Shown here: positions 18,668 to 58,646 of the stretch, in pieces | Layout: every line of letters starts with the position of its first letter | Numbering within the stretch: position 1 is the first letter of the stretch | From: a virus | Lineage: Duplodnaviria > Heunggongvirae > Uroviricota > Caudoviricetes | Length of the DNA stretch: 64,000 bases | IMG/VR virus record: IMGVR_UViG_2778261667_000017 | Strand: one strand, 5' to 3' | Notes under the pieces: generated by a model | What the model saw: the letters and a program-made list of their open reading frames with translations, nothing else | Databases searched by the model: none | What the model was told of the DNA's origin: nothing | Position numbers and translations under genes: made by a program

Positions 18668-20397
18668 GCCGGAAATCTTACCCCAACGTAAATGCTGCCA
18701 ATCAGTATGCCCGTGATGTCGTGCGCGGAAATATTGTGGCCTGCCAGTTTGTGATTCAGGCCTGCCAGCGCCATCTTGATGACCTGATGGCGGAAAAAAG
18801 TAAGTCGTTTCGTTACCGCTTCGACAAGGACCTGGCTGAACGGGCCGCCAAATTTATTCAGCTGTTGCCACACACCAAGGGGGAGTGGGCATTCAAGAGG
18901 ATGCCCATCACGCTGGAGCCGTGGCAGCTCTTTGTGATCTGCTGTGCGTTTGGCTGGGTCAATAAAGGTACCCGGCTGCGCCGCTTCCGGGAGGTGTATA
19001 CCGAAATCCCCCGTAAGAACGGCAAATCGGCAATCTCTGCCGGTGTCGCCCTGTATTGTTTTGCCTGTGATAACGAGTTTGGCGCGGAAGTGTATTCCGG
19101 TGCCACGACAGAGAAACAGGCGTGGGAAGTCTTTCGCCCGGCGCGACTGATGTGTAAACGCACACCCATGCTGACGGAAGCGTTCGGGATTGAGGTTAAC
19201 GCCTCAAACATGAACCGTCCGGAGGATGGCGCGCGGTTTGAACCGCTGATCGGTAACCCCGGTGATGGTTCATCACCCCACTGTGCGGTGGTGGATGAAT
19301 ATCACGAGCACGCCACCGATGCGCTTTACACCACGATGCTTACCGGGATGGGGGCGCGACGTCAGCCACTGATGTGGGCCATTACTACTGCAGGGTACAA
19401 CATTGAGGGGCCGTGCTACGACAAGCGACGGGAAGTTATCGAGATGCTCAACGGGTCGGTACCCAACGATGAACTGTTCGGGATCATCTATACCGTTGAC
19501 GAAGGCGATGACTGGACCGACCCGCAGGTGCTGGAAAAAGCCAACCCGAATATTGGCGTGTCGGTTTATCGCGAATTTTTGTTAAGTCAGCAGCAGCGTG
19601 CGAAAAATAACGCCCGTCTGGCAAACGTCTTTAAAACAAAACACCTCAATATCTGGGTGTCGGCGCGTTCGGCGTATTTCAACCTGGTGAGCTGGCAGAG
19701 CTGCGAGGATAAATCACTGACCCTTGAGCAGTTCGAGGGGCAGCCGTGCATTCTGGCCTTTGACCTGGCGCGTAAGCTGGATATGAACAGTATGGCGCGA
19801 CTTTATACCCGCGAGATTGACGGTAAAACGCATTACTACAGTGTGGCTCCGCGCTTCTGGGTACCGTATGACACGGTGTACAGCGTCGAGAAAAATGAAG
19901 ATCGCCGGACAGCCGAACGCTTTCAGAAATGGGTGGAAATGGGCGTTCTGACCGTTACCGCTGGTGCGGAGGTGGATTATCGCTACATCCTCGAGGAGGC
20001 CAAAGCGGCGAACAAAATCAGCCCGGTCAGCGAGTCACCCATCGACCCCTTCGGGGCGACCGGGCTCTCACATGACCTTGCTGATGAAGACCTGAACCCC
20101 ATCACTATCATTCAGAACTACACCAACATGTCCGACCCGATGAAAGAGCTGGAAGCGGCAATTGAATCGGGGCGCTTTCATCATGATGGCAATCCCATCA
20201 TGACCTGGTGTATCGGCAACGTGGTCGGCAAAACCATTCCGGGTAACGATGATGTGGTGAAGCCCGTCAAAGAGCAGGCGGAAAACAAAATCGATGGTGC
20301 AGTTGCGCTGATTATGGCGGTTGGCAGAGCCATGCTGTACGAGAAAGAAGACACGTTGTCTGACCACATTGAGTCCTATGGGATCCGCTCGCTTTAA
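18664..20397 (+). CDS. Terminase large subunit, 577 aa
   Basis: ATPase and nuclease region patterns; size; position. Confidence 0.9.
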
Positions 20398-39803: not shown

Positions 39804-40946
39804 CTATGCTGTTTTGATATCTACGATAATCCAGTCTTTACCACGATCATCATTGTATCGGTCGGTCATTTTTCTGGATTTATGACCTAACAACTTTTGC
39901 GTATCCAGACCCTGTTCCCGATATAACCGTTCTGACAGAGATCGCTGCTCATGAAATGTGGGCGCAGTTCCTTGCTCCCATTTTATGCCACATTTTTCCC
40001 TGGCCTTTTTAAAAGCCGTTGTAAGAGTATTTGCAGACACCTGGTCTCCTCTGTTTGCTTGAGAGGTAGTGTGACGGTAATGGACCAGATATTTACTAAC
40101 AACAGCATCCCTGCACTGAGATATAACTTCACGAAGGGTAATATTCAGAGCATCGCATTTCAGGTTAAGCGGAATAGCAAGTTTTGAACCGGTTTTTTCC
40201 TGAGTAATGTGCAACATGTCGTCCCAGATATCAGAGAATTTCAAATTGCAGATATCGCCTAAACGTTGTCCAGTGACAAGAGCAAGTAGCATCCCGCATT
40301 TTAAATAGGGCTGCCGTCTGCTTACGCTGTCAAATATTGCCTGCCATTCGGGCAGTGATAATCTTTGGCGGTTTACTCGATTTCGCGGTTGTTTTGTTGC
40401 CTGCGCTGGGTTAAATCCTGGCGGAACATGTCCGGCGTGTTGTGCTTCTTTGAAGACGTCGATCAACACCATTCTCACGACTTGCGCCATCCTGTTATGA
40501 CCTTCAGCCTTTACAGCATCAATTATTTCGGCAATATCAAGTGCGGTAATATCCTTGAGGTGTTGCATTCCACAATGCTCACGGAAAAGACGAATGGGTT
40601 TGCCTTTTTGCCGATAGGAGTTGGGTCTTAGTTCATTATGTTGCAGCCTGTCCTCCTGGATAGAAATATATTTATCAAGCCATTCTGTCACCGTAATGTC
40701 TGAGCGCCTGCCTTTCATTCTTTCCAGACGCTCATTGACGCTTAATATTTGTCGGGTACGTTGTTCAGCAATAATGGTATTTGCTTCAGTAGCAACTTGT
40801 TTTGCTTCATTCTCATCAGTTCCTAAGCTATGAAAACGACCGGATAGTGGATGTTTGTATTGCCAATATACCTTTCCGGTTCGCTTATCTAATTTGCAAT
40901 ATAAATTGGGTATAGAGATTTTGTGAGATCGGGGGCTAGCAGCCAT
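39804..40946 (-). CDS. int: Tyrosine integrase of prophage 2, 380 aa
   Basis: Paralogous to integrase at 1-1128; adjacent to icd fragment and xis. Confidence 0.9.
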   Translation of the reverse strand: MAASPRSHKISIPNLYCKLDKRTGKVYWQYKHPLSGRFHSLGTDENEAKQVATEANTIIAEQRTRQILSVNERLERMKGRRSDITVTEWLDKYISIQEDRLQHNELRPNSYRQKGKPIRLFREHCGMQHLKDITALDIAEIIDAVKAEGHNRMAQVVRMVLIDVFKEAQHAGHVPPGFNPAQATKQPRNRVNRQRLSLPEWQAIFDSVSRRQPYLKCGMLLALVTGQRLGDICNLKFSDIWDDMLHITQEKTGSKLAIPLNLKCDALNITLREVISQCRDAVVSKYLVHYRHTTSQANRGDQVSANTLTTAFKKAREKCGIKWEQGTAPTFHEQRSLSERLYREQGLDTQKLLGHKSRKMTDRYNDDRGKDWIIVDIKTA

Positions 40947-51900: not shown

Positions 51901-52263
51901 GTGAATACCTACAGCATCACATTACCCTGGCCTCCGAGCAATAATCGCTATTACCGCCATAATCGCGGGCGCACGCACGTCAGCGCAGAGGGGCAGGCAT
52001 ACCGCGATAACGTCGCCCGAATCATTAAAAACGCAATGCTGGATATCGGCCTGGCTATGCCTGTGAAAATCCGCATTGAGTGCCACATGCCGGATCGCCG
52101 TCGCCGTGACCTGGATAATCTGCAAAAAGCCGCTTTTGACGCACTCACTAAAGCAGGTTTCTGGCTGGATGATGCTCAGGTCGTTGATTACCGCGTTGTG
52201 AAGATGCCTGTTACCAAAGGTGGGAGGCTGGAACTGACCATCACCGAAATGGGGAATGAATGA
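51901..52263 (+). CDS. rusA: RusA Holliday junction resolvase, 120 aa
   Basis: Matches remembered DLP12 RusA. Confidence 0.95.
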
Positions 52264-52400
52264 TGTTTGAGTTTAATATGGCAGAACTTCTTCGCCACCG
52301 CTGGGGGCGTCTGCGCTTATATCGTTTCCCCGGTTCTGTTTTGACCGATTACCGAATACTGAAGAATTACGCCAAAACACTGACAGGAGCAGGAGTATGA
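52260..52400 (+). CDS. ylcG: YlcG-like small protein, 46 aa
   Basis: Translated from sequence ([46 protein letters not shown]); overlaps rusA stop. Confidence 0.65.
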
Positions 52401-52485
52401 AGTCAGAGATAACAATCAACTAATACTGTTTTGTTGATTTTTGCTTGTAATTGGCGTTCTGGTCTGAGTTTTGTGGAGTAAGTTG

Positions 52486-52863
52486 ATGCGTGATATTCAG
52501 ATGGTTCTTGAGCGTTGGGGAGCGTGGGCGGCTAATAATCATGAAGATGTGACCTGGTCGTCCATTGCCGCCGGTTTTAAGGGATTAATTCCTTCAAAAG
52601 TAAAATCTCGCCCACAATGTTGTGACGATGACGCGATGATCATTTGCGGGTGCATGGCCCGTCTGAAAAAGAACAACAGCGATTTGCATGATTTATTGGT
52701 GGACTATTATGTCGGCGGCATGACTTTTATGGCGCTTGCACGTAAGCATGGGCGATCTGATTGTTGGGTTGGCAGGATGCTCCAGAAAGCTGAGGGCGTA
52801 GTGGAGGGTATGCTGATGGTGTTGGATCTCCGATTGGAGATGGATGCTGATTGTTCGAAATAA
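52486..52863 (+). CDS. Q: Late antiterminator Q (QuuD-like), 127 aa
   Basis: Matches remembered DLP12 QuuD; precedes late promoter/terminator. Confidence 0.9.
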
Positions 52864-52959
52864 TTAAAGGAAAAGTTGCTGTCTGATTGTCATTAGTCTA
52901 ACATTTTAAATGTTGGAATCGCAACGTAGTTATTATCATATAACAGCTTGTTTCCTGAT

Positions 52960-52990
52960 TTAGCCAGCCTCCCCAAAGGCTGGTTTTTTT
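52960..52990 (+). terminator. tR'-like terminator downstream of Q
   Basis: Hairpin ccagcc-tccccaaa-ggctgg followed by ttttttt. Confidence 0.55.
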
Positions 52991-53018
52991 CTAATAAGTA
53001 TTATTTCGAGTAGGGATT

Positions 53019-53543
53019 TTATTGTTTAACCCATAATAATTCATTGACATTGAATCCCAACTTTTGAGCGGTTCGCACATAGTCTGCTTTTACTTTATCT
53101 GGAATAGTTGGGGTCCTTGCCAGAATCCATAGGTATTCTCTGTTCGGACCACTGACAAGAGCATACTTATACTCATCATCCAGTTTGATTACATTATAGC
53201 CACCATAGAAGGGGCCAAAAAACGAAACCTTCAACGCTGCAGTTTTAGTATCTCCAGTAAAGTATGCTTTACCTTCGCTCTCGCTCCATTTATTTTTCGT
53301 TGGATCGTATCCACGGTTAAGTACACGAATCCCTCCGTCGTTCCGTTTTCCATAAGTAGCGCTGACCTGTTCCAGACCACGTTCGAACCGGTTCTCGAGG
53401 CGAGCTATTTCATACCACTTTCCGAGGTAGCGGTTGGCGTCAAAATTTGTAATCGGCTGCACACCTTTAGGTGGTGTCGGGGCCTTACATGCTATAAGAG
53501 TGAAAGAGAGTGCAATGCCAGTCAACACAGGCCATAACATCAT
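53019..53543 (-). CDS. Blc-like bacterial lipocalin lipoprotein, 174 aa (moron)
   Basis: Lipoprotein signal with lipobox (LIAC) and lipocalin motifs (NRYLGKWYEIARL). Confidence 0.85.
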   Translation of the reverse strand: MMLWPVLTGIALSFTLIACKAPTPPKGVQPITNFDANRYLGKWYEIARLENRFERGLEQVSATYGKRNDGGIRVLNRGYDPTKNKWSESEGKAYFTGDTKTAALKVSFFGPFYGGYNVIKLDDEYKYALVSGPNREYLWILARTPTIPDKVKADYVRTAQKLGFNVNELLWVKQ

Positions 53544-53735
53544 AATAAATCCTGTACTTTTGATAGTTGAGAGTAAGTATGAAAGATAGATGATTACGAC
53601 CGATCACTTAAAGAACTTTCATACTATATTAGGAATAGTCCATAACAGAAAAATTGTCAGTGATGACGCCATAAAGGCAATTTAGTCCGTGCACTACACA
53701 GTTTATGTGTTAATGAATTAGTCAAGGGGGAGGAT

Positions 53736-54695
53736 ATGATAAAAAAACCTGTGATTGGAATCAGCGGTTGTTTGGCCGGTTCTGCTGTTCGTTTTGATGG
53801 TGGTCACAAAAGAGCTGACTTTTTAATGGACAAATTAGTGGAATGGGTAACATTCAGACCAGTATGTCCGGAAATGGCTATAGGGCTGCCAGTTCCGCGT
53901 CCTGCTCTACGTCTTGTGCGCTCGACGCAAGGAAATATACGGATGTGTTTCAGCCACGACCAGAATGAGGATGTGACAGAGAGAATGACAGAGTTTAGTC
54001 GTTCTTATATGGACAAATTAAAGGATGTATCGGGGTTTGTGGTTTGTGCTAAATCTCCCAGCTGTGGCATGGAGCGCGTGCGTGTCTATGATGAAAATGG
54101 TAATCGAGGTCGTAAAGATGGAGTGGGACTATTTACGAGCACTTTGATGGAAAAGTTTTCCTGGCTACCGGTTGAAGAGGATGGGCGATTACATGATCCA
54201 GTGCTTCGTGAGAATTTTGTTGAAAGAGTTTTTGCTTTGCATGAGCTCAATCACCTTTACAAGGAGAAATTATCAAGAAGAGAGTTATTAGCTTTTCATA
54301 GTCGTTATAAGCTTCAGTTGTTGGCGCATAGTCAGGCAGGCTATAAAGATATGGGACCATTTGTGGCTGCAATACACGAGTGGGCGGACCTTGAATCATA
54401 CTTTGAGGTGTATCGTGATAAGCTGATGGCGATTCTCAGAAAACCTGCATCACGTAAAAATCACACGAATGTGCTGATGCATATACAGGGGTATTTTAGT
54501 AACTACTTAAGTACACGCCAGCGTAAAGAGTTGAGCGAGGTTATACTTAACTATCGTTCTGGCACATTACCTCTTCTTGCGCCGTTGACTCTGCTGAAGC
54601 ATTATCTGGGTGAGTATCCTAATGATTACTTGCTTACACAGAATTACTTCGATCCCTATCCGGACGAACTGGCTCTAAGACTGATGGTAAATTAA
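53736..54695 (+). CDS. DUF523 (TudS-like thiouracil desulfurase) / DUF1722 fusion protein, 319 aa (moron)
   Basis: N-terminal Cys motifs (GISGCLAG, CPEMAIGLPVPRP, CAKSPSCG) typical of DUF523; YbgA-like C-terminal half. Confidence 0.7.
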   Translation: MIKKPVIGISGCLAGSAVRFDGGHKRADFLMDKLVEWVTFRPVCPEMAIGLPVPRPALRLVRSTQGNIRMCFSHDQNEDVTERMTEFSRSYMDKLKDVSGFVVCAKSPSCGMERVRVYDENGNRGRKDGVGLFTSTLMEKFSWLPVEEDGRLHDPVLRENFVERVFALHELNHLYKEKLSRRELLAFHSRYKLQLLAHSQAGYKDMGPFVAAIHEWADLESYFEVYRDKLMAILRKPASRKNHTNVLMHIQGYFSNYLSTRQRKELSEVILNYRSGTLPLLAPLTLLKHYLGEYPNDYLLTQNYFDPYPDELALRLMVN

Positions 54696-55036
54696 TTGTA
54701 TGCGATATCATCCAAAAGGATGAGTTCCTGCATGCAGGATATTTACAATCGTAAAAACCACACTATGATACCCAGAGTGTCAGTTTGTATAAAAACTCTG
54801 TTTACGCTGAAGAAACAATTGAGATGCAACTTAAAGTTGGTAAACATGCCAGTCAAAATATATAATATTATGATTCCACGCAGCTATATATAATATAACA
54901 GATTGGTTTAATAATTTGTCTTTGTGAGTTAAATACATAATTTTATACTTGTGATGCAATGAAATTTTCCTTATTGTTGAACTGGCGAATATTGATTTTC
55001 CACCTATACTTACCTGTGTAACCCCAATGATATCAG

Positions 55037-55777
55037 GTGGATAATATGCCATACATATGTTCTATCATTTTGGTGTTGAACTCGTTTGATGTCCGAATTG
55101 GTAAAGAAGATATTTTGTTTAAAAAAGGAAGTGCTGTTCTCATTGATTACAATTTAAAAGATTTTTTTTCATCAAATATAGATCATGTAATGATCGTAGA
55201 TGTTGAAGAGAAAACAGTTAATGATTTCTTTAAAAGCAACACACTCTCACCTTTTTCTGTAAGAAGGTTTTATCCGGCATACTTGATGGTGGAATGTGAA
55301 GATTTTTCATTGTTAAAGAACTTGATTGCATGCTTGAATTGTGATGGCAGAACTGTGGATTTTGTTAGAAATCAAATATCACTTGCATGTCTTGCTATCT
55401 TATCTTCAGAGAAAATAGTGCAAAGTTTTTTATTTGGATGTCTTAATAGTTTAGGAAGTAAAGTTAAGGCTATTATTCACACGGATATATCTGCAGCATG
55501 GAGACTTTGTGATATATCTTCAAGACTGTATCTGAGTGAAAGTCTGTTAAAAAGAAAATTAAAGCACGAAGGCTTATCATTTAGTAAGTTAATTCTTGAA
55601 GAGCGAATGGTGATGGCGGAAAGGTTATTAAGCTACAATTTATATTCTGTTGGAAAAGTTGCTGAGATATGCGGTTATGAAAACACGTCATATTTTGTAA
55701 GTGTTTTCAGAAGGTATTTTGGTGTTCCTCCCCATCAATATTCATCAAGATTTTTTTTAGAAAAAGACATGATGTAA
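55037..55777 (+). CDS. AraC-family transcriptional regulator, 246 aa (moron)
   Basis: C-terminal AraC-type HTH (VGKVAEICGYENTSYFVSVFRRYFGVPPHQY); AT-rich. Confidence 0.8.
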   Translation: MDNMPYICSIILVLNSFDVRIGKEDILFKKGSAVLIDYNLKDFFSSNIDHVMIVDVEEKTVNDFFKSNTLSPFSVRRFYPAYLMVECEDFSLLKNLIACLNCDGRTVDFVRNQISLACLAILSSEKIVQSFLFGCLNSLGSKVKAIIHTDISAAWRLCDISSRLYLSESLLKRKLKHEGLSFSKLILEERMVMAERLLSYNLYSVGKVAEICGYENTSYFVSVFRRYFGVPPHQYSSRFFLEKDMM

Positions 55778-55964
55778 CGTGATGCGTTTTAATGATTTTG
55801 TAATTTTCGTATTTGATAATTGTATGATGCTTTCAGCTACGCCAGAATAATCGCGGCGTTTTTCTTTTTGAATAGATGTTCAAGCCTTACGCTAATGTAA
55901 CTTCTATACCTTTCCTCTTCGTTCCGAACCGTGTACACCATCCGTTATTTGCGGAGGTGAGGCT

Positions 55965-56180
55965 ATGAAATCCATGGATAAGTTAACAACGGGCATTGCC
56001 TACGGCACCTCCGCAGGCAGTGCTGGCTACTGGTTTTTACAGCTGCTCGATAAAGTCACGCCCTCACAGTGGGCAGCAATAGGTGTGCTGGGTAGCTTGG
56101 TATTTGGCCTGCTGACGTACCTGACAAACCTTTATTTCAAGATTAAAGAAGATAAGCGCAAGGCTGCGAGAGGTGAATAA
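55965..56180 (+). CDS. Holin (EssD/lambda S-like class), 71 aa
   Basis: Small two-TM protein with charged C-terminus directly upstream of lysozyme. Confidence 0.8.
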
Positions 56181-56677
56181 TGCCTCCATCATTACGAAAA
56201 GCCGTTGCTGCTGCTATTGGTGGCGGAGCAATTGCTATAGCATCAGTGTTAATCACTGGCCCAAGTGGTAACGATGGTCTGGAAGGTGTCAGCTACATAC
56301 CATACAAAGATATTGTTGGTGTATGGACTGTATGTCACGGGCATACAGGAAAAGACATCATGCTCGGTAAAACGTATACCAAAGCAGAATGCAAAGCCCT
56401 CCTGAATAAAGACCTTGCCACGGTCGCCAGACAAATTAACCCGTACATAAAAGTTGATATACCGGAAACAACGCGCGGCGCTCTTTACTTGTTCGTTTAC
56501 AACGTGGGCGCTGGCAATTTCAGAACATCGACGCTTCTTCGCAAAATAAACCAGGGCGATATCAAAGGCGCATGTGATCAGCTACGTCGCTGGACATATG
56601 CTGGCGGTAAGCAATGGAAAGGTCTCATGACTCGTCGTGAGATTGAGCGTGAAATCTGTTTGTGGGGTCAGCAATGA
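56180..56677 (+). CDS. Endolysin (T4-lysozyme-type muramidase), 165 aa
   Basis: Lysozyme family pattern; position in lysis cassette. Confidence 0.85.
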
Positions 56678-57135
56678 ACAGAGTAACCGCGATTATCTCC
56701 GCTCTGGTTATCTGCATCATCGTTTGCCTGTCATGGGCTGTTAATCATTACCGTGATAACGCCATTACCTACAAAGCCCAGCGCGACAAAAATGCCAGAG
56801 AACTGAAGCTGGCGAACGCGGCAATTACTGACATGCAGATGCGTCAGCGTGATGTTGCTGCGCTCGATGCAAAATACACGAAGGAGTTAGCTGATGCGAA
56901 AGCTGAAAATGATGCTCTGCGTGATGATGTTGCCGCTGGTCGTCGTCGGTTGCACATCAAAGCAGTCTGTCAGTCAGTGCGTGAAGCCACCACCGCCTCC
57001 GGCGTGGATAATGCAGCCTCCCCCCGACTGGCAGACACCGCTGAACGGGATTATTTCACCCTCAGAGAGAGGCTGATCACTATGCAAAAACAACTGGAAG
57101 GAACCCAGAAGTATATTAATGAGCAGTGCAGATAG
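56662..57135 (+). CDS. Rz: Rz i-spanin, 157 aa
   Basis: N-terminal TM then coiled-coil; contains embedded Rz1. Confidence 0.85.
56894..57076 (+). CDS. Rz1: Rz1 o-spanin lipoprotein (embedded in Rz), 60 aa
   Basis: Lipobox VVGC and proline-rich [15 protein letters not shown], matches lambda Rz1. Confidence 0.8.
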
Positions 57136-57166
57136 AGCTGCCCATATCGATGGGCAACTCATGCAA

Positions 57167-57460
57167 TTATTGTGAGCAATACACACGCGCTTCCAGCGGA
57201 GTATAAATGCCTAAAGTAATAAAACCGAGAAATCCATTTACGAATGTTTGCTGGGTTTCTGTTTTAACAACATTTTCTGCGCCGCCACAAATTTTGGCTG
57301 CATCAACAGTTTTCTCCTGTCCAATTCCCGAAACGAAGAAATGATGGGTGATGGTTTCCTTTGGTGTTACTGCTGTCGGTTTGTTTCCAACAGTAAACGT
57401 CTGTTGAGCACATCCTGTAATAAGCATTGCCAGAGCGGCAGAAAACAACATTTTTTTCAT
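57167..57460 (-). CDS. bor: Bor lipoprotein (serum resistance), 97 aa
   Basis: Matches remembered lambda Bor; lipobox ITGC. Confidence 0.9.
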   Translation of the reverse strand: MKKMLFSAALAMLITGCAQQTFTVGNKPTAVTPKETITHHFFVSGIGQEKTVDAAKICGGAENVVKTETQQTFVNGFLGFITLGIYTPLEARVYCSQ

Positions 57461-57627
57461 CTTATTATCCTGCATTGTTAAAAACGGCAGAATCCTATGT
57501 GACAACAATTAAACGATAGTTAAATGGATTGATGAAAATTAAAACTATATAGGTGGATGCTCAGCCTATTGGAGGAGGGGGGGCACTCAGAATCCTGTGG
57601 AATGAAATAAACCGCTCTATCTGTCCA

Positions 57628-57852
57628 TTACCCTTTTAGCTGCGCTGTATCGTCGCCGTATTCCCGCATTAACCATGACCGTAGCCCGACGGGGAATTCC
57701 TTCTGCGTGAGTGTGCGGGAATAATCAAAAACGATGCTCACCGGGTTTTTACCGCGTTTATGGTTCGCGGGGGTGTCCCTCATGCTCGCCAGTCCTGTGC
57801 GGGGGTGGAAGAAACAGGACGTGTATTCAGGTCTGTGTGACTGTGGTCGCAA
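57628..57852 (-). CDS. Hypothetical protein (lambda p78 position), 74 aa
   Basis: ORF between bor and cos as in lambda. Confidence 0.35.
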   Translation of the reverse strand: MRPQSHRPEYTSCFFHPRTGLASMRDTPANHKRGKNPVSIVFDYSRTLTQKEFPVGLRSWLMREYGDDTAQLKG

Positions 57853-57879
57853 GACTTTTGTCGTTCAGCTATGAAATCC

Positions 57880-58120
57880 CATTACGAAGTAGACCAGAAC
57901 GGCCAACGGGTCCTTTCCGGCGATCCGACAGGTTACGGGGCGGCGACCTCGCGGGTTTTCGCTATTTATGAAAATTTTCCGGTTTAAGGCGTTTCCGTTC
58001 TTCTTCGTCGTAACTTAATGTTTTTATTTAAAATACCCCCTGAAAAGAAAGGAAACGACAGGTGCTGAAAGCGAGCTTTTTGGCCTCTGTCGTTTCCTTT
58101 CTCTGTTTTTGTCCGTGGAA
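57880..58120. other. cos: cos site (cosQ-cosN-cosB); 12-nt cohesive end GGGCGGCGACCT at 57938-57949
   Basis: Matches remembered lambda termini (...CGACAGGTTACG | GGGCGGCGACCTCGCGGGTTTTCGC). Confidence 0.85.
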
Positions 58121-58126
58121 TGAGCA

Positions 58127-58646
58127 ATGGAAGTCAACAAAAAGCAGCTGGCTGACATTTTCGGTGCGAGTATCCGTACCATTCAGAACTGGCAGGAACA
58201 GGGAATGCCCGTTCTGCGAGGCGGTGGCAAGGGTAATGAGGTGCTTTATGACTCTGCCGCCGTCATAAAATGGTATGCCGAAAGGGATGCTGAAATTGAG
58301 AACGAAAAGCTGCGCCGGGAGGTTGAAGAACTGCGGCAGGCCAGCGAGGCAGATCTCCAGCCAGGGACTATTGAGTACGAACGCCATCGACTTACGCGTG
58401 CGCAGGCCGACGCACAGGAACTGAAGAATGCCAGAGACTCCGCTGAAGTGGTGGAAACCGCATTCTGTACTTTCGTGTTGTCGCGGATCGCAGGTGAAAT
58501 TGCCAGTATTCTCGACGGGATCCCCCTGTCGGTGCAGCGGCGTTTTCCGGAACTGGAAAACCGACATGTTGATTTCCTGAAACGGGATATCATCAAAGCC
58601 ATGAACAAAGCAGCCGCGCTGGATGAACTGATACCGGGGTTGCTGA

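Follow-up and report, generated by a model that had tools for sequence, protein, structure and literature searches.

A three-gene cargo island was delineated in the window, a 64,000-nucleotide stretch of IMG/VR virus record IMGVR_UViG_2778261667_000017 (Duplodnaviria; Heunggongvirae; Uroviricota; Caudoviricetes), where it lies between the late antiterminator gene Q and the lysis genes of a lambda-like Escherichia coli prophage. The island encodes a Blc-type lipocalin, a predicted RudS-type eraser of tRNA 4-thiouridine (s4U) and an AraC-type regulator, and it is probably a composite of two origins, carried in the slot between Q with its late promoter PR' and the lysis genes and serving the stress tolerance of the lysogen. 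The first part, a divergent lipocalin/RudS pair, would have been captured as a unit from a chromosomal locus at which a MerR/MlrA-like regulator normally controls the pair. By analogy with homologues in which this has been shown, RudS would hold a [4Fe-4S] cluster on three cysteines and convert tRNA s4U to uridine, and removal of s4U would take away the near-UV photosensitiser that crosslinks tRNA, blocks its charging and triggers growth delay. The second part, a low-GC regulator of the PatE/PsrA group, would by homology most likely activate gadE and hdeAB in lysogens. As a whole, the island would give the lysogen near-UV, envelope and acid tolerance, and it may also aid the induced phage.

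The genes of the island, with the region between the divergent pair, are as follows.

53019-53543, minus strand: Blc-type lipocalin, predicted outer-membrane lipoprotein (Pfam Lipocalin_2 PF08212, 7e-44)
53544-53735, no strand: divergent lipocalin-RudS intergenic region, the lipocalin-side half of which aligns to the Enterobacter/Leclercia lipocalin-merR intergenic region
53736-54695, plus strand: RudS, TudS-type desulfidase domain plus DUF1722 (Pfam; 319 amino acids)
55046-55777, plus strand: AraC/XylS-family regulator of the PatE/Psr/YdeO-like group (243 amino acids, GC content about 0.32; HTH_18 1e-14, HTH_AraC 2e-11)

Three genes had been placed here by a first-pass annotation made from the sequence alone, and all three were recovered in the list of open reading frames (ORFs) within the stretch it gave, 53019-55777, at 53019-53543 (minus strand, 174 amino acids), 53736-54695 (plus strand, 319 amino acids) and 55037-55777 (plus strand). 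It had proposed a hidden Markov model search as the check on DUF523/DUF1722; Pfam and NCBIfam profile searches bore out all three domain assignments, and the placement between Q and the holin gene agreed with both the RefSeq annotation and a comparison with prophage DLP12 of E. coli K-12.

RudS of the island

As judged from its domain layout, its identity to a characterised enzyme and its retained active-site residues, the 319-residue protein is RudS, a predicted eraser of tRNA s4U. Residues 7-149 matched 2-thiour_desulf/DUF523 (PF04463; 3e-40, with the full profile, 1-141, covered), and residues 192-309 of the same polypeptide matched DUF1722 (PF08349; 2e-40). The NCBIfam YbgA model aligned to residues 160-315 only, with a score under its cut-off, which is what a fusion protein should give. 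The N-terminal motif could be aligned to that of the TudS structure 6Z92. Over all 319 residues the protein is 93% identical (21 substitutions) to RudS_vir, the gp66 product of Escherichia phage 1H12 (H3V29_gp66) and the viral representative in the study of Jamontas et al. (2024, Nucleic Acids Research), where Cys12, Cys44 and Cys110 are listed (PMC11417400). The protein of the window is identical in sequence to the one encoded in strain 181.1, which corresponds to RefSeq WP_000592546.1.

All three cysteines are kept in the window protein, together with Glu46, Arg55, Ser107, Ser109 and Lys106, in register with C17, C49, C114, E51, R60, S111, S113 and K110 of RudS_KT. Mutation of E51, R60, S111, S113 or the three cysteines abolished the activity of that enzyme (PMC11417400). 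When overexpressed in E. coli, the RudS variants, RudS_vir included, all lowered the s4U content of tRNA, and RudS overexpression shortened the UVA (long-wave ultraviolet) growth delay (PMC11417400). It had been suggested in the first-pass annotation that the enzyme could act on thiolated nucleosides of host or phage nucleic acids; through the 93% identical RudS_vir the idea holds for s4U of host tRNA, whereas nothing points to phage nucleic acid as a substrate.

The lipocalin-RudS module and its chromosomal relatives

RudS relatives were sought in one genome per species, which yielded 62 loci on chromosomes of Enterobacteriaceae and Pectobacteriaceae, with protein identities of 66-77%. At 42 of these 62, a lipocalin about 80% identical to that of the window lies upstream of, and divergent from, a RudS of about 70-77% identity. 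Most of the paired loci (Enterobacter, Leclercia and relatives) have a 1456-bp gap that holds a MerR/MlrA-like gene and a transthyretin/HIUase-like gene, the MerR-family regulator carrying helical and C-terminal domains of the MlrA type. The lipocalin gene directly adjoins RudS in Citrobacter sedlakii and Citrobacter sp. JGM124, across gaps of 188 and 229 bp, respectively; the phage gap is 192 bp. The RudS genes of E. cloacae and Salmonella (Salmonella ORF319) have also been described as adjoining a MerR-family regulator, and induction by light or stress has been proposed (PMC11417400). Comparison of these loci identifies the lipocalin and RudS genes as one inherited module, which probably came from an enterobacterial chromosomal locus.

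The phage module is without the MerR-type regulator and the transthyretin-like gene. No regulator gene is left in the 53544-53735 intergenic region, which is 90.6% identical to that of phage 1H12 and in which only a weak promoter-like site was seen (53567-53594). Apart from the lipocalin-side half of this region, the similarity between phage and chromosomal DNA was confined to coding sequence, at 66-75% identity, so that the capture must be old or the donor unsampled, and none of the sampled species can be the direct donor. The best RudS match in the search for a chromosomal donor, that of Citrobacter amalonaticus (77%), likewise shared DNA homology in coding sequence only, and no donor was identified.

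Two further features of the chromosomal loci were seen. In Enterobacter hormaechei (L014, 4018-6960) and similar loci the order is lipocalin (minus strand), MerR/MlrA-like gene, transthyretin/HIUase-family gene and RudS; the discussion section of the RudS paper does not mention the transthyretin-like gene between regulator and RudS (PMC11417400). Citrobacter braakii ATCC 51113 carries RudS on two contigs (L004 and L005), each copy 76% identical to the query, that is, as two copies, and no lipocalin gene was present within 6 kb of either.

The lipocalin scored 314 bits over its full length against the NCBIfam Blc model NF007786 (cut-off 267), which places it in the Blc subfamily. It is 64% identical over 155 residues to the E. 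coli Blc structure 3MBT and 97% identical to gp65 of phage 1H12. A lipobox, LIAC with Cys19, was read from the translation without a dedicated predictor (MMLWPVLTGIALSFTLIAC followed by KAPT, with Lys as residue +2). The gene is oriented antisense to late transcription, as is lambda bor, and on that account would be a lysogen-expressed gene. A protein one residue apart from it, WP_000780581.1, was detected in lysogen proteomics published in 2026, where it rose 2-3 fold on meropenem (PMC13459554); the lipocalin gene is therefore expressed in a lysogen. The morons recorded by Mathieu et al. (2020) already include blc, carried by more than 50% of the lambda phages in their infant-gut set (PMC6969025), and several of those phages were among the phage-record matches of the region.

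The AraC-type regulator

The first-pass annotation had described this gene as AT-rich and AraC-type, which stood; the start in the ORF list, GTG 55037, did not. That codon falls inside a Shine-Dalgarno (SD) sequence, AGGTGG at 55035-55040, 5 nucleotides 5' of ATG 55046; RefSeq also starts the gene at this ATG (243 amino acids), which is almost certainly the true start. Against the NCBIfam YdeO equivalog NF007407 the protein scored 127 bits over its full length (cut-off 348), and by this score it is related to YdeO and is not YdeO itself.

Over 235 residues the regulator is 54% identical to ECs_0287 of strain Sakai, with the N-terminal domain at 38% and the C-terminal domain at 72%, and 39% identical to PsrA (ECs_1087, as a 237-residue ORF). 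PsrA is ecs1087 according to a 2026 paper; in Sakai prophage Sp4 it follows Q and precedes the ileZ-argN-argO tRNA genes, and so occupies the same Q-to-lysis slot. ECs_0287 is the sole AraC-like gene in Sakai prophage Sp1, which equals OI-8, where PatE (Z0321) maps, and from this location we infer that ECs_0287 is PatE. PatE, PsrA and PsrB are prophage AraC-like regulators that activate the gadE/hdeAB acid-resistance genes and repress the enterocyte effacement locus (LEE). By analogy with them, it is plausible that the window regulator reprograms host genes in lysogens, as the first-pass annotation had proposed, with gadE and hdeAB as the best guess.

A search of 5.8 billion proteins gave 28 clusters of relatives, and every organism name given by the sources was E. 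coli. The lineages comprise the window type, a 1H12 type at 82-85% identity, one type at 64%, another at 52-56% that shares 98% identity with Sakai ECs_0287, and a 41% PsrA-like type. An AlphaFold 2 model of the window protein (mean predicted local distance difference test score 83.5) gave two-domain fold matches to Rns, CsvR and ToxT and superposed on the DNA-binding domain of GadX at 1.5 Å. A fatty-acid pocket of the Rns/ToxT kind in the N-terminal domain was considered; the architecture is shared, inter-domain superposition was poor (root mean square deviation about 15 Å), and no claim is made. The gene was absent from all of the chromosomal RudS loci. Because of this absence, its GC content of 0.30-0.33 and its homology to ECs_0287/PatE and PsrA, it is regarded as a separate acquisition.

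With regard to PsrA itself, the RefSeq protein has 195 residues (L149, 18804-19391), and an in-frame ATG at 18678 gives 237 residues (18678-19391). The N-terminus of this longer ORF aligns with the window regulator and ECs_0287 from residue 1, so the annotated start is probably too far downstream.

Borders and composition of the cargo slot

The slot is bordered by the following phage genes.

52486-52863, plus strand: late antiterminator Q, left border (Pfam Phage_antitermQ PF06530, 2.5e-51; an alternative TTG start at 52471 is in the ORF list)
55965-56180, plus strand: S21-type holin, right border (Pfam Phage_holin_2_1, 2e-35)
56180-56677, plus strand: phage lysozyme, after the holin (Pfam Phage_lysozyme, 4e-44)
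Rz, following the lysozyme, and then bor at 57167-57508, minus strand (bor from K-12 borD homology, in a stretch to 57514 that covers borD, and from the ORF reading)

In RefSeq, Q is a 378-nucleotide gene for an 'antiterminator Q family protein'. Its identity to K-12 quuD is 95% as far as 52845, in the last Q codons, where homology to DLP12 ends; homology restarts at 55954, 11 nucleotides 5' of the holin gene, and from there onward covers essD-rrrD-rzpD-borD of K-12. The end and restart of DLP12 homology define an exchangeable cargo slot at about 52846-55953. The N-terminus of the lysozyme resembles a signal-arrest-release signal, as judged by eye and with no tool.

Within the slot, GC content was 0.30-0.33 for the AraC gene and 0.42-0.46 for the lipocalin and RudS genes, against about 0.5 for the phage backbone. 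The island thus shows the atypical composition (0.30-0.46 against flanks of about 0.5) and the place between conserved phage genes (with borders set by DLP12) by which Hendrix-type morons, extra and dispensable genes, are recognised. A megablast search of phage records with the region returned 12 lambda-like coliphages that share this gene order, phage 1H12 among them, in which Q, lipocalin, RudS, AraC and holin follow one another in the setting found here. When 52000-58200 was scanned permissively against Rfam, no credible RNA family emerged; the sole match was the terminator hairpin, which scored 28.6 bits where the cut-off is 50. No tRNA genes were found anywhere in the window. Upstream, positions 1-39000 hold another prophage-like block, in which long ORFs on the plus strand run from about 18 to 38 kb; the start of the second prophage is near an ORF at 39804-40946 (minus strand), which was taken as the integrase gene from its position only.

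Transcription signals and the AraC leader

The sites below were read as leads.

52864-52961, plus strand: region expected, from its position, to hold the Q-dependent late promoter (PR'/qut)
52962-52992, plus strand: tR'-type intrinsic terminator (9-bp GC-rich hairpin, then seven U; terminator scan)
54742-54769, plus strand: candidate sigma-70 promoter for AraC (TTTACA-16-TATGAT, 10/12 consensus matches)
55000-55040, plus strand: AraC leader with anti-SD/SD pairing (CCACCU at 55000-55005 can pair with AGGUGG at 55035-55040)
55839-55870, plus strand: weak hairpin followed by UUUUUCUUUUU, possible terminator after AraC (U-run read from the sequence)

The tR' hairpin lies about 100 nucleotides after Q and folds at -14.9 kcal/mol (z = -3.5; equalled by 1 of 200 shuffled sequences). 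It also stands 3' of the convergent lipocalin gene, where the minus strand is without a U-run. On the plus strand, no further terminator was predicted after tR' until the weak one past the AraC gene. RudS and AraC are co-oriented with the late operon and no strong terminator separates tR' from the holin gene, so the Q-antiterminated polymerase would transcribe both after induction. Such Q-modified polymerase would read through tR' and run antisense across the lipocalin gene.

The late promoter itself was not pinned down. Reading of the sequence suggested TTGCTG at 52876-52881, a 17-nucleotide spacer and TAACAT at 52899-52904, followed by a -10-like TAAAT, whereas the consensus scan gave another candidate, TGGAGA-18-AATAAT at 52835-52864, with 9/12 matches. 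No homology was found between the region after Q and the DLP12 region after quuD. Promoter and terminator sites in the region were no more numerous than expected from shuffled sequence. As for a promoter and terminator of its own, another mark of a moron, the island has a kept promoter-like site before AraC and a weak terminator after it, and the promoter scan gave nothing convincing for RudS. The TTTACA-16-TATGAT block before AraC is kept in the 1H12 allele, in a spacer that overall is only 67% identical. The hairpin at 55839-55870 (-7 to -8 kcal/mol, z = +0.6) was no better than shuffles. Another hairpin, at 54697-54736 right after the RudS stop (-21.8 kcal/mol, z = -4.3), is without a U-run and is not kept in 1H12, and was dropped as a candidate functional element.

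In the AraC leader, the pairing of the SD sequence with its anti-SD was present in the minimum-energy folds of both alleles, with a z of only about -1. Across 79 leader sequences the SD arm is invariant and the loop diverges; the anti-SD differs in a single locus (L127), where U replaces C and a G-U pair can still form. The leader of ECs_0287, the putative PatE, likewise folds over its own SD. Translational or thermal control of the regulator, as for ToxT and LcrF, is a possibility suggested by these folds. At 55010-55020 the window allele has a 1-nucleotide deletion (CCTGTGTAA) relative to the majority allele (CCTGGTGTAA, at least 59 loci), which removes a second GGUG able to compete for the anti-SD.

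Prevalence, selection and disrupted copies

Presence of each gene was scored at 80% coverage or more in 5426 complete E. coli genomes. RudS was found in 1064 of them, the lipocalin in 1042 and AraC in 992, each gene in about 19-20% of the genomes. The full Q-to-holin stretch was present in 979; the window RudS allele was present at 99% nucleotide identity or more in about 620. In IMG/VR, 74 of 80 loci held all five genes from Q to holin, and the island was also seen in cultured phages. The RudS paper, which does not discuss prophage context, neighbouring genes or E. coli prevalence, describes E. coli as lacking RudS (PMC11417400), and the same is stated in a 2026 review (PMC13602947); this generalisation fails for about a fifth of the sequenced strains. 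A literature search with the RefSeq accessions of the island and with DUF1722 plus prophage returned only the RudS paper and one proteomics table.

The ratio of nonsynonymous to synonymous substitution rates (dN/dS), computed between the window allele and the 1H12 allele, was 0.07 for the lipocalin, 0.11 for RudS and 0.26 for AraC (N-terminal domain 0.33, C-terminal domain 0.14). All three genes are under purifying selection.

Disrupted copies also occur. One viral locus (L135) has the holin gene, with the AraC region replaced by insertion sequence IS1; another (L124) is without the AraC gene and holin, with 4 kb of downstream sequence present; the remaining AraC-less loci stop at contig edges. 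In BL21(DE3) (L068; NC_012971.2, 1582528-1595052), Q, lipocalin and RudS lie in a Qin-type prophage with the lipocalin intact, RudS cut by IS3 after about 49 codons and the downstream genes replaced. Further copies of the island are broken by IS2, IS5 or IS1. The same cluster was seen in two short contigs (L056, JARKOR010000151.1; L061, JARKOR010000135.1) binned to the metagenome-assembled genome D148_maxbin.008 of 'Candidatus Nanosynbacter sp.', with Q, lipocalin, RudS, AraC and holin at 94-100% protein identity; these contigs are almost certainly mis-binned E. coli phage DNA.

Weighing of alternative explanations

Several points weigh against two-origin cargo for lysogen stress tolerance as the explanation of the island. 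Without its MerR-type regulator the pair no longer has its native control by light or stress, and the promoter scan gave no convincing lysogenic promoter for RudS, in a region whose site counts do not exceed those of shuffles. The experimental support for RudS comes from homologues and not from this allele, and the published data were obtained by plasmid overexpression and not in lysogens. RudS_vir was a weaker s4U eraser than other orthologues (e.g. the Pseudomonas enzyme) despite good expression, and it had some activity on free 4-thiouracil (PMC11417400). The guess at gadE and hdeAB rests on proteins 39-54% identical to the regulator, with the sensing domain at 38%, and the equation of PatE with ECs_0287 on the OI-8/Sp1 location.

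That RudS is mainly a lytic auxiliary is possible, although we hold it to be on the unlikely side; RudS made by Q-dependent transcription once sunlight or UV had induced the prophage would then strip s4U from host tRNA and, under continued near-UV exposure, sustain late-protein synthesis and burst size. RudS is the first plus-strand gene past tR', in late-operon orientation, with no terminator between and no convincing promoter of its own, the MerR-type regulator of its chromosomal counterparts is missing, and the shortened UVA growth delay upon RudS overexpression would fit (PMC11417400). However, tRNA once crosslinked is beyond repair by RudS, turnover of s4U may be too slow for a latent period of 40-60 min, gut E. 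coli are exposed to little light, and the constant partner of RudS, the lipocalin, has the orientation for lysogenic expression and is made in lysogens. The most interesting reading, in which RudS would keep the translation of the induced phage going under near-UV, can be put as a late-operon tRNA eraser: s4U8 would be stripped after induction by sunlight or UV, so that tRNA crosslinking, charging starvation and a rise in guanosine tetraphosphate (ppGpp) would not follow, ppGpp being a signal that disfavours lambda lytic growth. We consider this specific version doubtful. If true, it would be the first case of a phage that safeguards its burst by editing the tRNA epitranscriptome of its host, and, in the roughly 20% of E. 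coli lysogenic for such phages, near-UV physiology would depend on the strain. There is little to recommend, as a further possibility, takeover of the lipocalin-RudS pair by AraC from the lost MerR/MlrA-like regulator, the island then forming one regulatory unit. The three genes are tightly linked (in 74 of the 80 viral loci, and the one checked locus with holin and without AraC is an IS1 replacement), and the place at which a regulator would be needed is just the one from which the MerR gene is missing. Neighbours in a slot of 3 kb would be tightly linked in any case, however; PatE and PsrA act on host genes and are carried by other prophages that have neither RudS nor lipocalin, the GC content of the AraC gene differs, which points to a separate origin, and no recognisable AraC binding site was present.

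A slight chance is left to TudS-like salvage or detoxification of free thiouracil or thio-UMP, and not tRNA, as the chief role of the 319-residue protein. The TudS catalytic domain is intact, and of the RudS variants it was RudS_vir with which a uracil auxotroph showed the shortest lag on 4-thiouracil (PMC11417400). Yet its growth support was unlike that of stand-alone TudS, thiouracils were not considered primary substrates by the authors, and tRNA s4U was lowered by all RudS variants including RudS_vir (PMC11417400); moreover, the fused DUF1722 tRNA-binding domain has been kept under purifying selection. Defence or counter-defence, for instance tRNA de-modification that evades or triggers tRNA-targeting immunity, is very improbable. 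Modifications of tRNA can be determinants for anticodon nucleases, as t6A is for PrrC (PMC13602947), and the Q-lysis slot and other prophage moron sites often hold defence genes, but none of the three proteins matched a PADLOC defence model at E ≤ 0.01, and the locus that holds the chromosomal relatives is one of housekeeping stress genes, not a defence island. We know of no defence system keyed to s4U8. Finally, some copies are broken by insertion sequences (RudS of BL21(DE3) by IS3, AraC of L135 by IS1, others by IS2, IS5 or IS1), as would suit inert passengers or decaying pseudogenes; this is already refuted by the intact reading frames of the window, dN/dS values of 0.07-0.26, full-length copies in more than 1000 genomes, detection of the lipocalin protein and the activity of a RudS orthologue.

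Significance

The island is largely ordinary, since every component is of a described kind: RudS_vir was reported in 2024, the blc moron in 2020 and PatE/Psr-group regulators in 2011-2015, and the Q-to-lysis slot was likewise known. What is added is that lipocalin and RudS form an inherited module whose phage copy is without the MerR-type regulator, that the AraC gene is an independent, uncharacterised lineage, and that RudS is present in about a fifth of sequenced E. coli strains. The value lies mainly in annotation and in correcting the generalisation that E. coli lacks RudS. With RudS full-length in 1064 of 5426 genomes, near-UV growth delay, s4U and ppGpp responses may differ between strains by prophage content, and a PatE/PsrA-like regulator widespread in commensal and clinical E. 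coli could affect acid resistance.

Comparison with known systems

RudS_vir and the window RudS share a length of 319 residues, the TudS plus DUF1722 fusion, the same Cys, Glu, Arg and Ser residues and the same genomic setting, and differ by the 21 amino-acid substitutions of the window allele. The window lipocalin resembles E. coli Blc (1QWD, 2ACO, 3MBT) in its Lipocalin_2 fold, lipobox, 64% identity and score above the Blc cut-off; chromosomal blc, however, adjoins ampC, whereas the window gene is a paralogue tied to RudS. With the chromosomal loci of Enterobacter, Leclercia and Citrobacter the island has in common the same divergent pair, at about 80% and 70-77% protein identity, and an alignable part of the lipocalin-side spacer; the phage copies differ in their lower GC content and in being without the MerR-type and transthyretin-like genes.

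The window regulator is like PatE and PsrA in size, two-domain architecture and full-length homology, and PsrA also sits in a Q-to-lysis slot. Its DNA-binding domain is 72% identical to that of ECs_0287, the inferred PatE, with near-identical recognition-helix segments, whereas the N-terminal domain is only 38% identical; it forms a lineage of its own, whose two alleles share 83% identity. PatE and PsrA are found in effector-carrying prophages of enterohaemorrhagic E. coli (EHEC), the window regulator in lambdoid phages of commensal and extraintestinal pathogenic types. The Q-to-lysis slot is a classic cargo site, holding stx in Stx phages, nmpC in DLP12 and tRNA genes in EHEC prophages. The island shares with such cargo the slot, its borders relative to DLP12 and the dependence of co-oriented genes on late transcription; the cargo genes differ, and here one of the three opposes late transcription.

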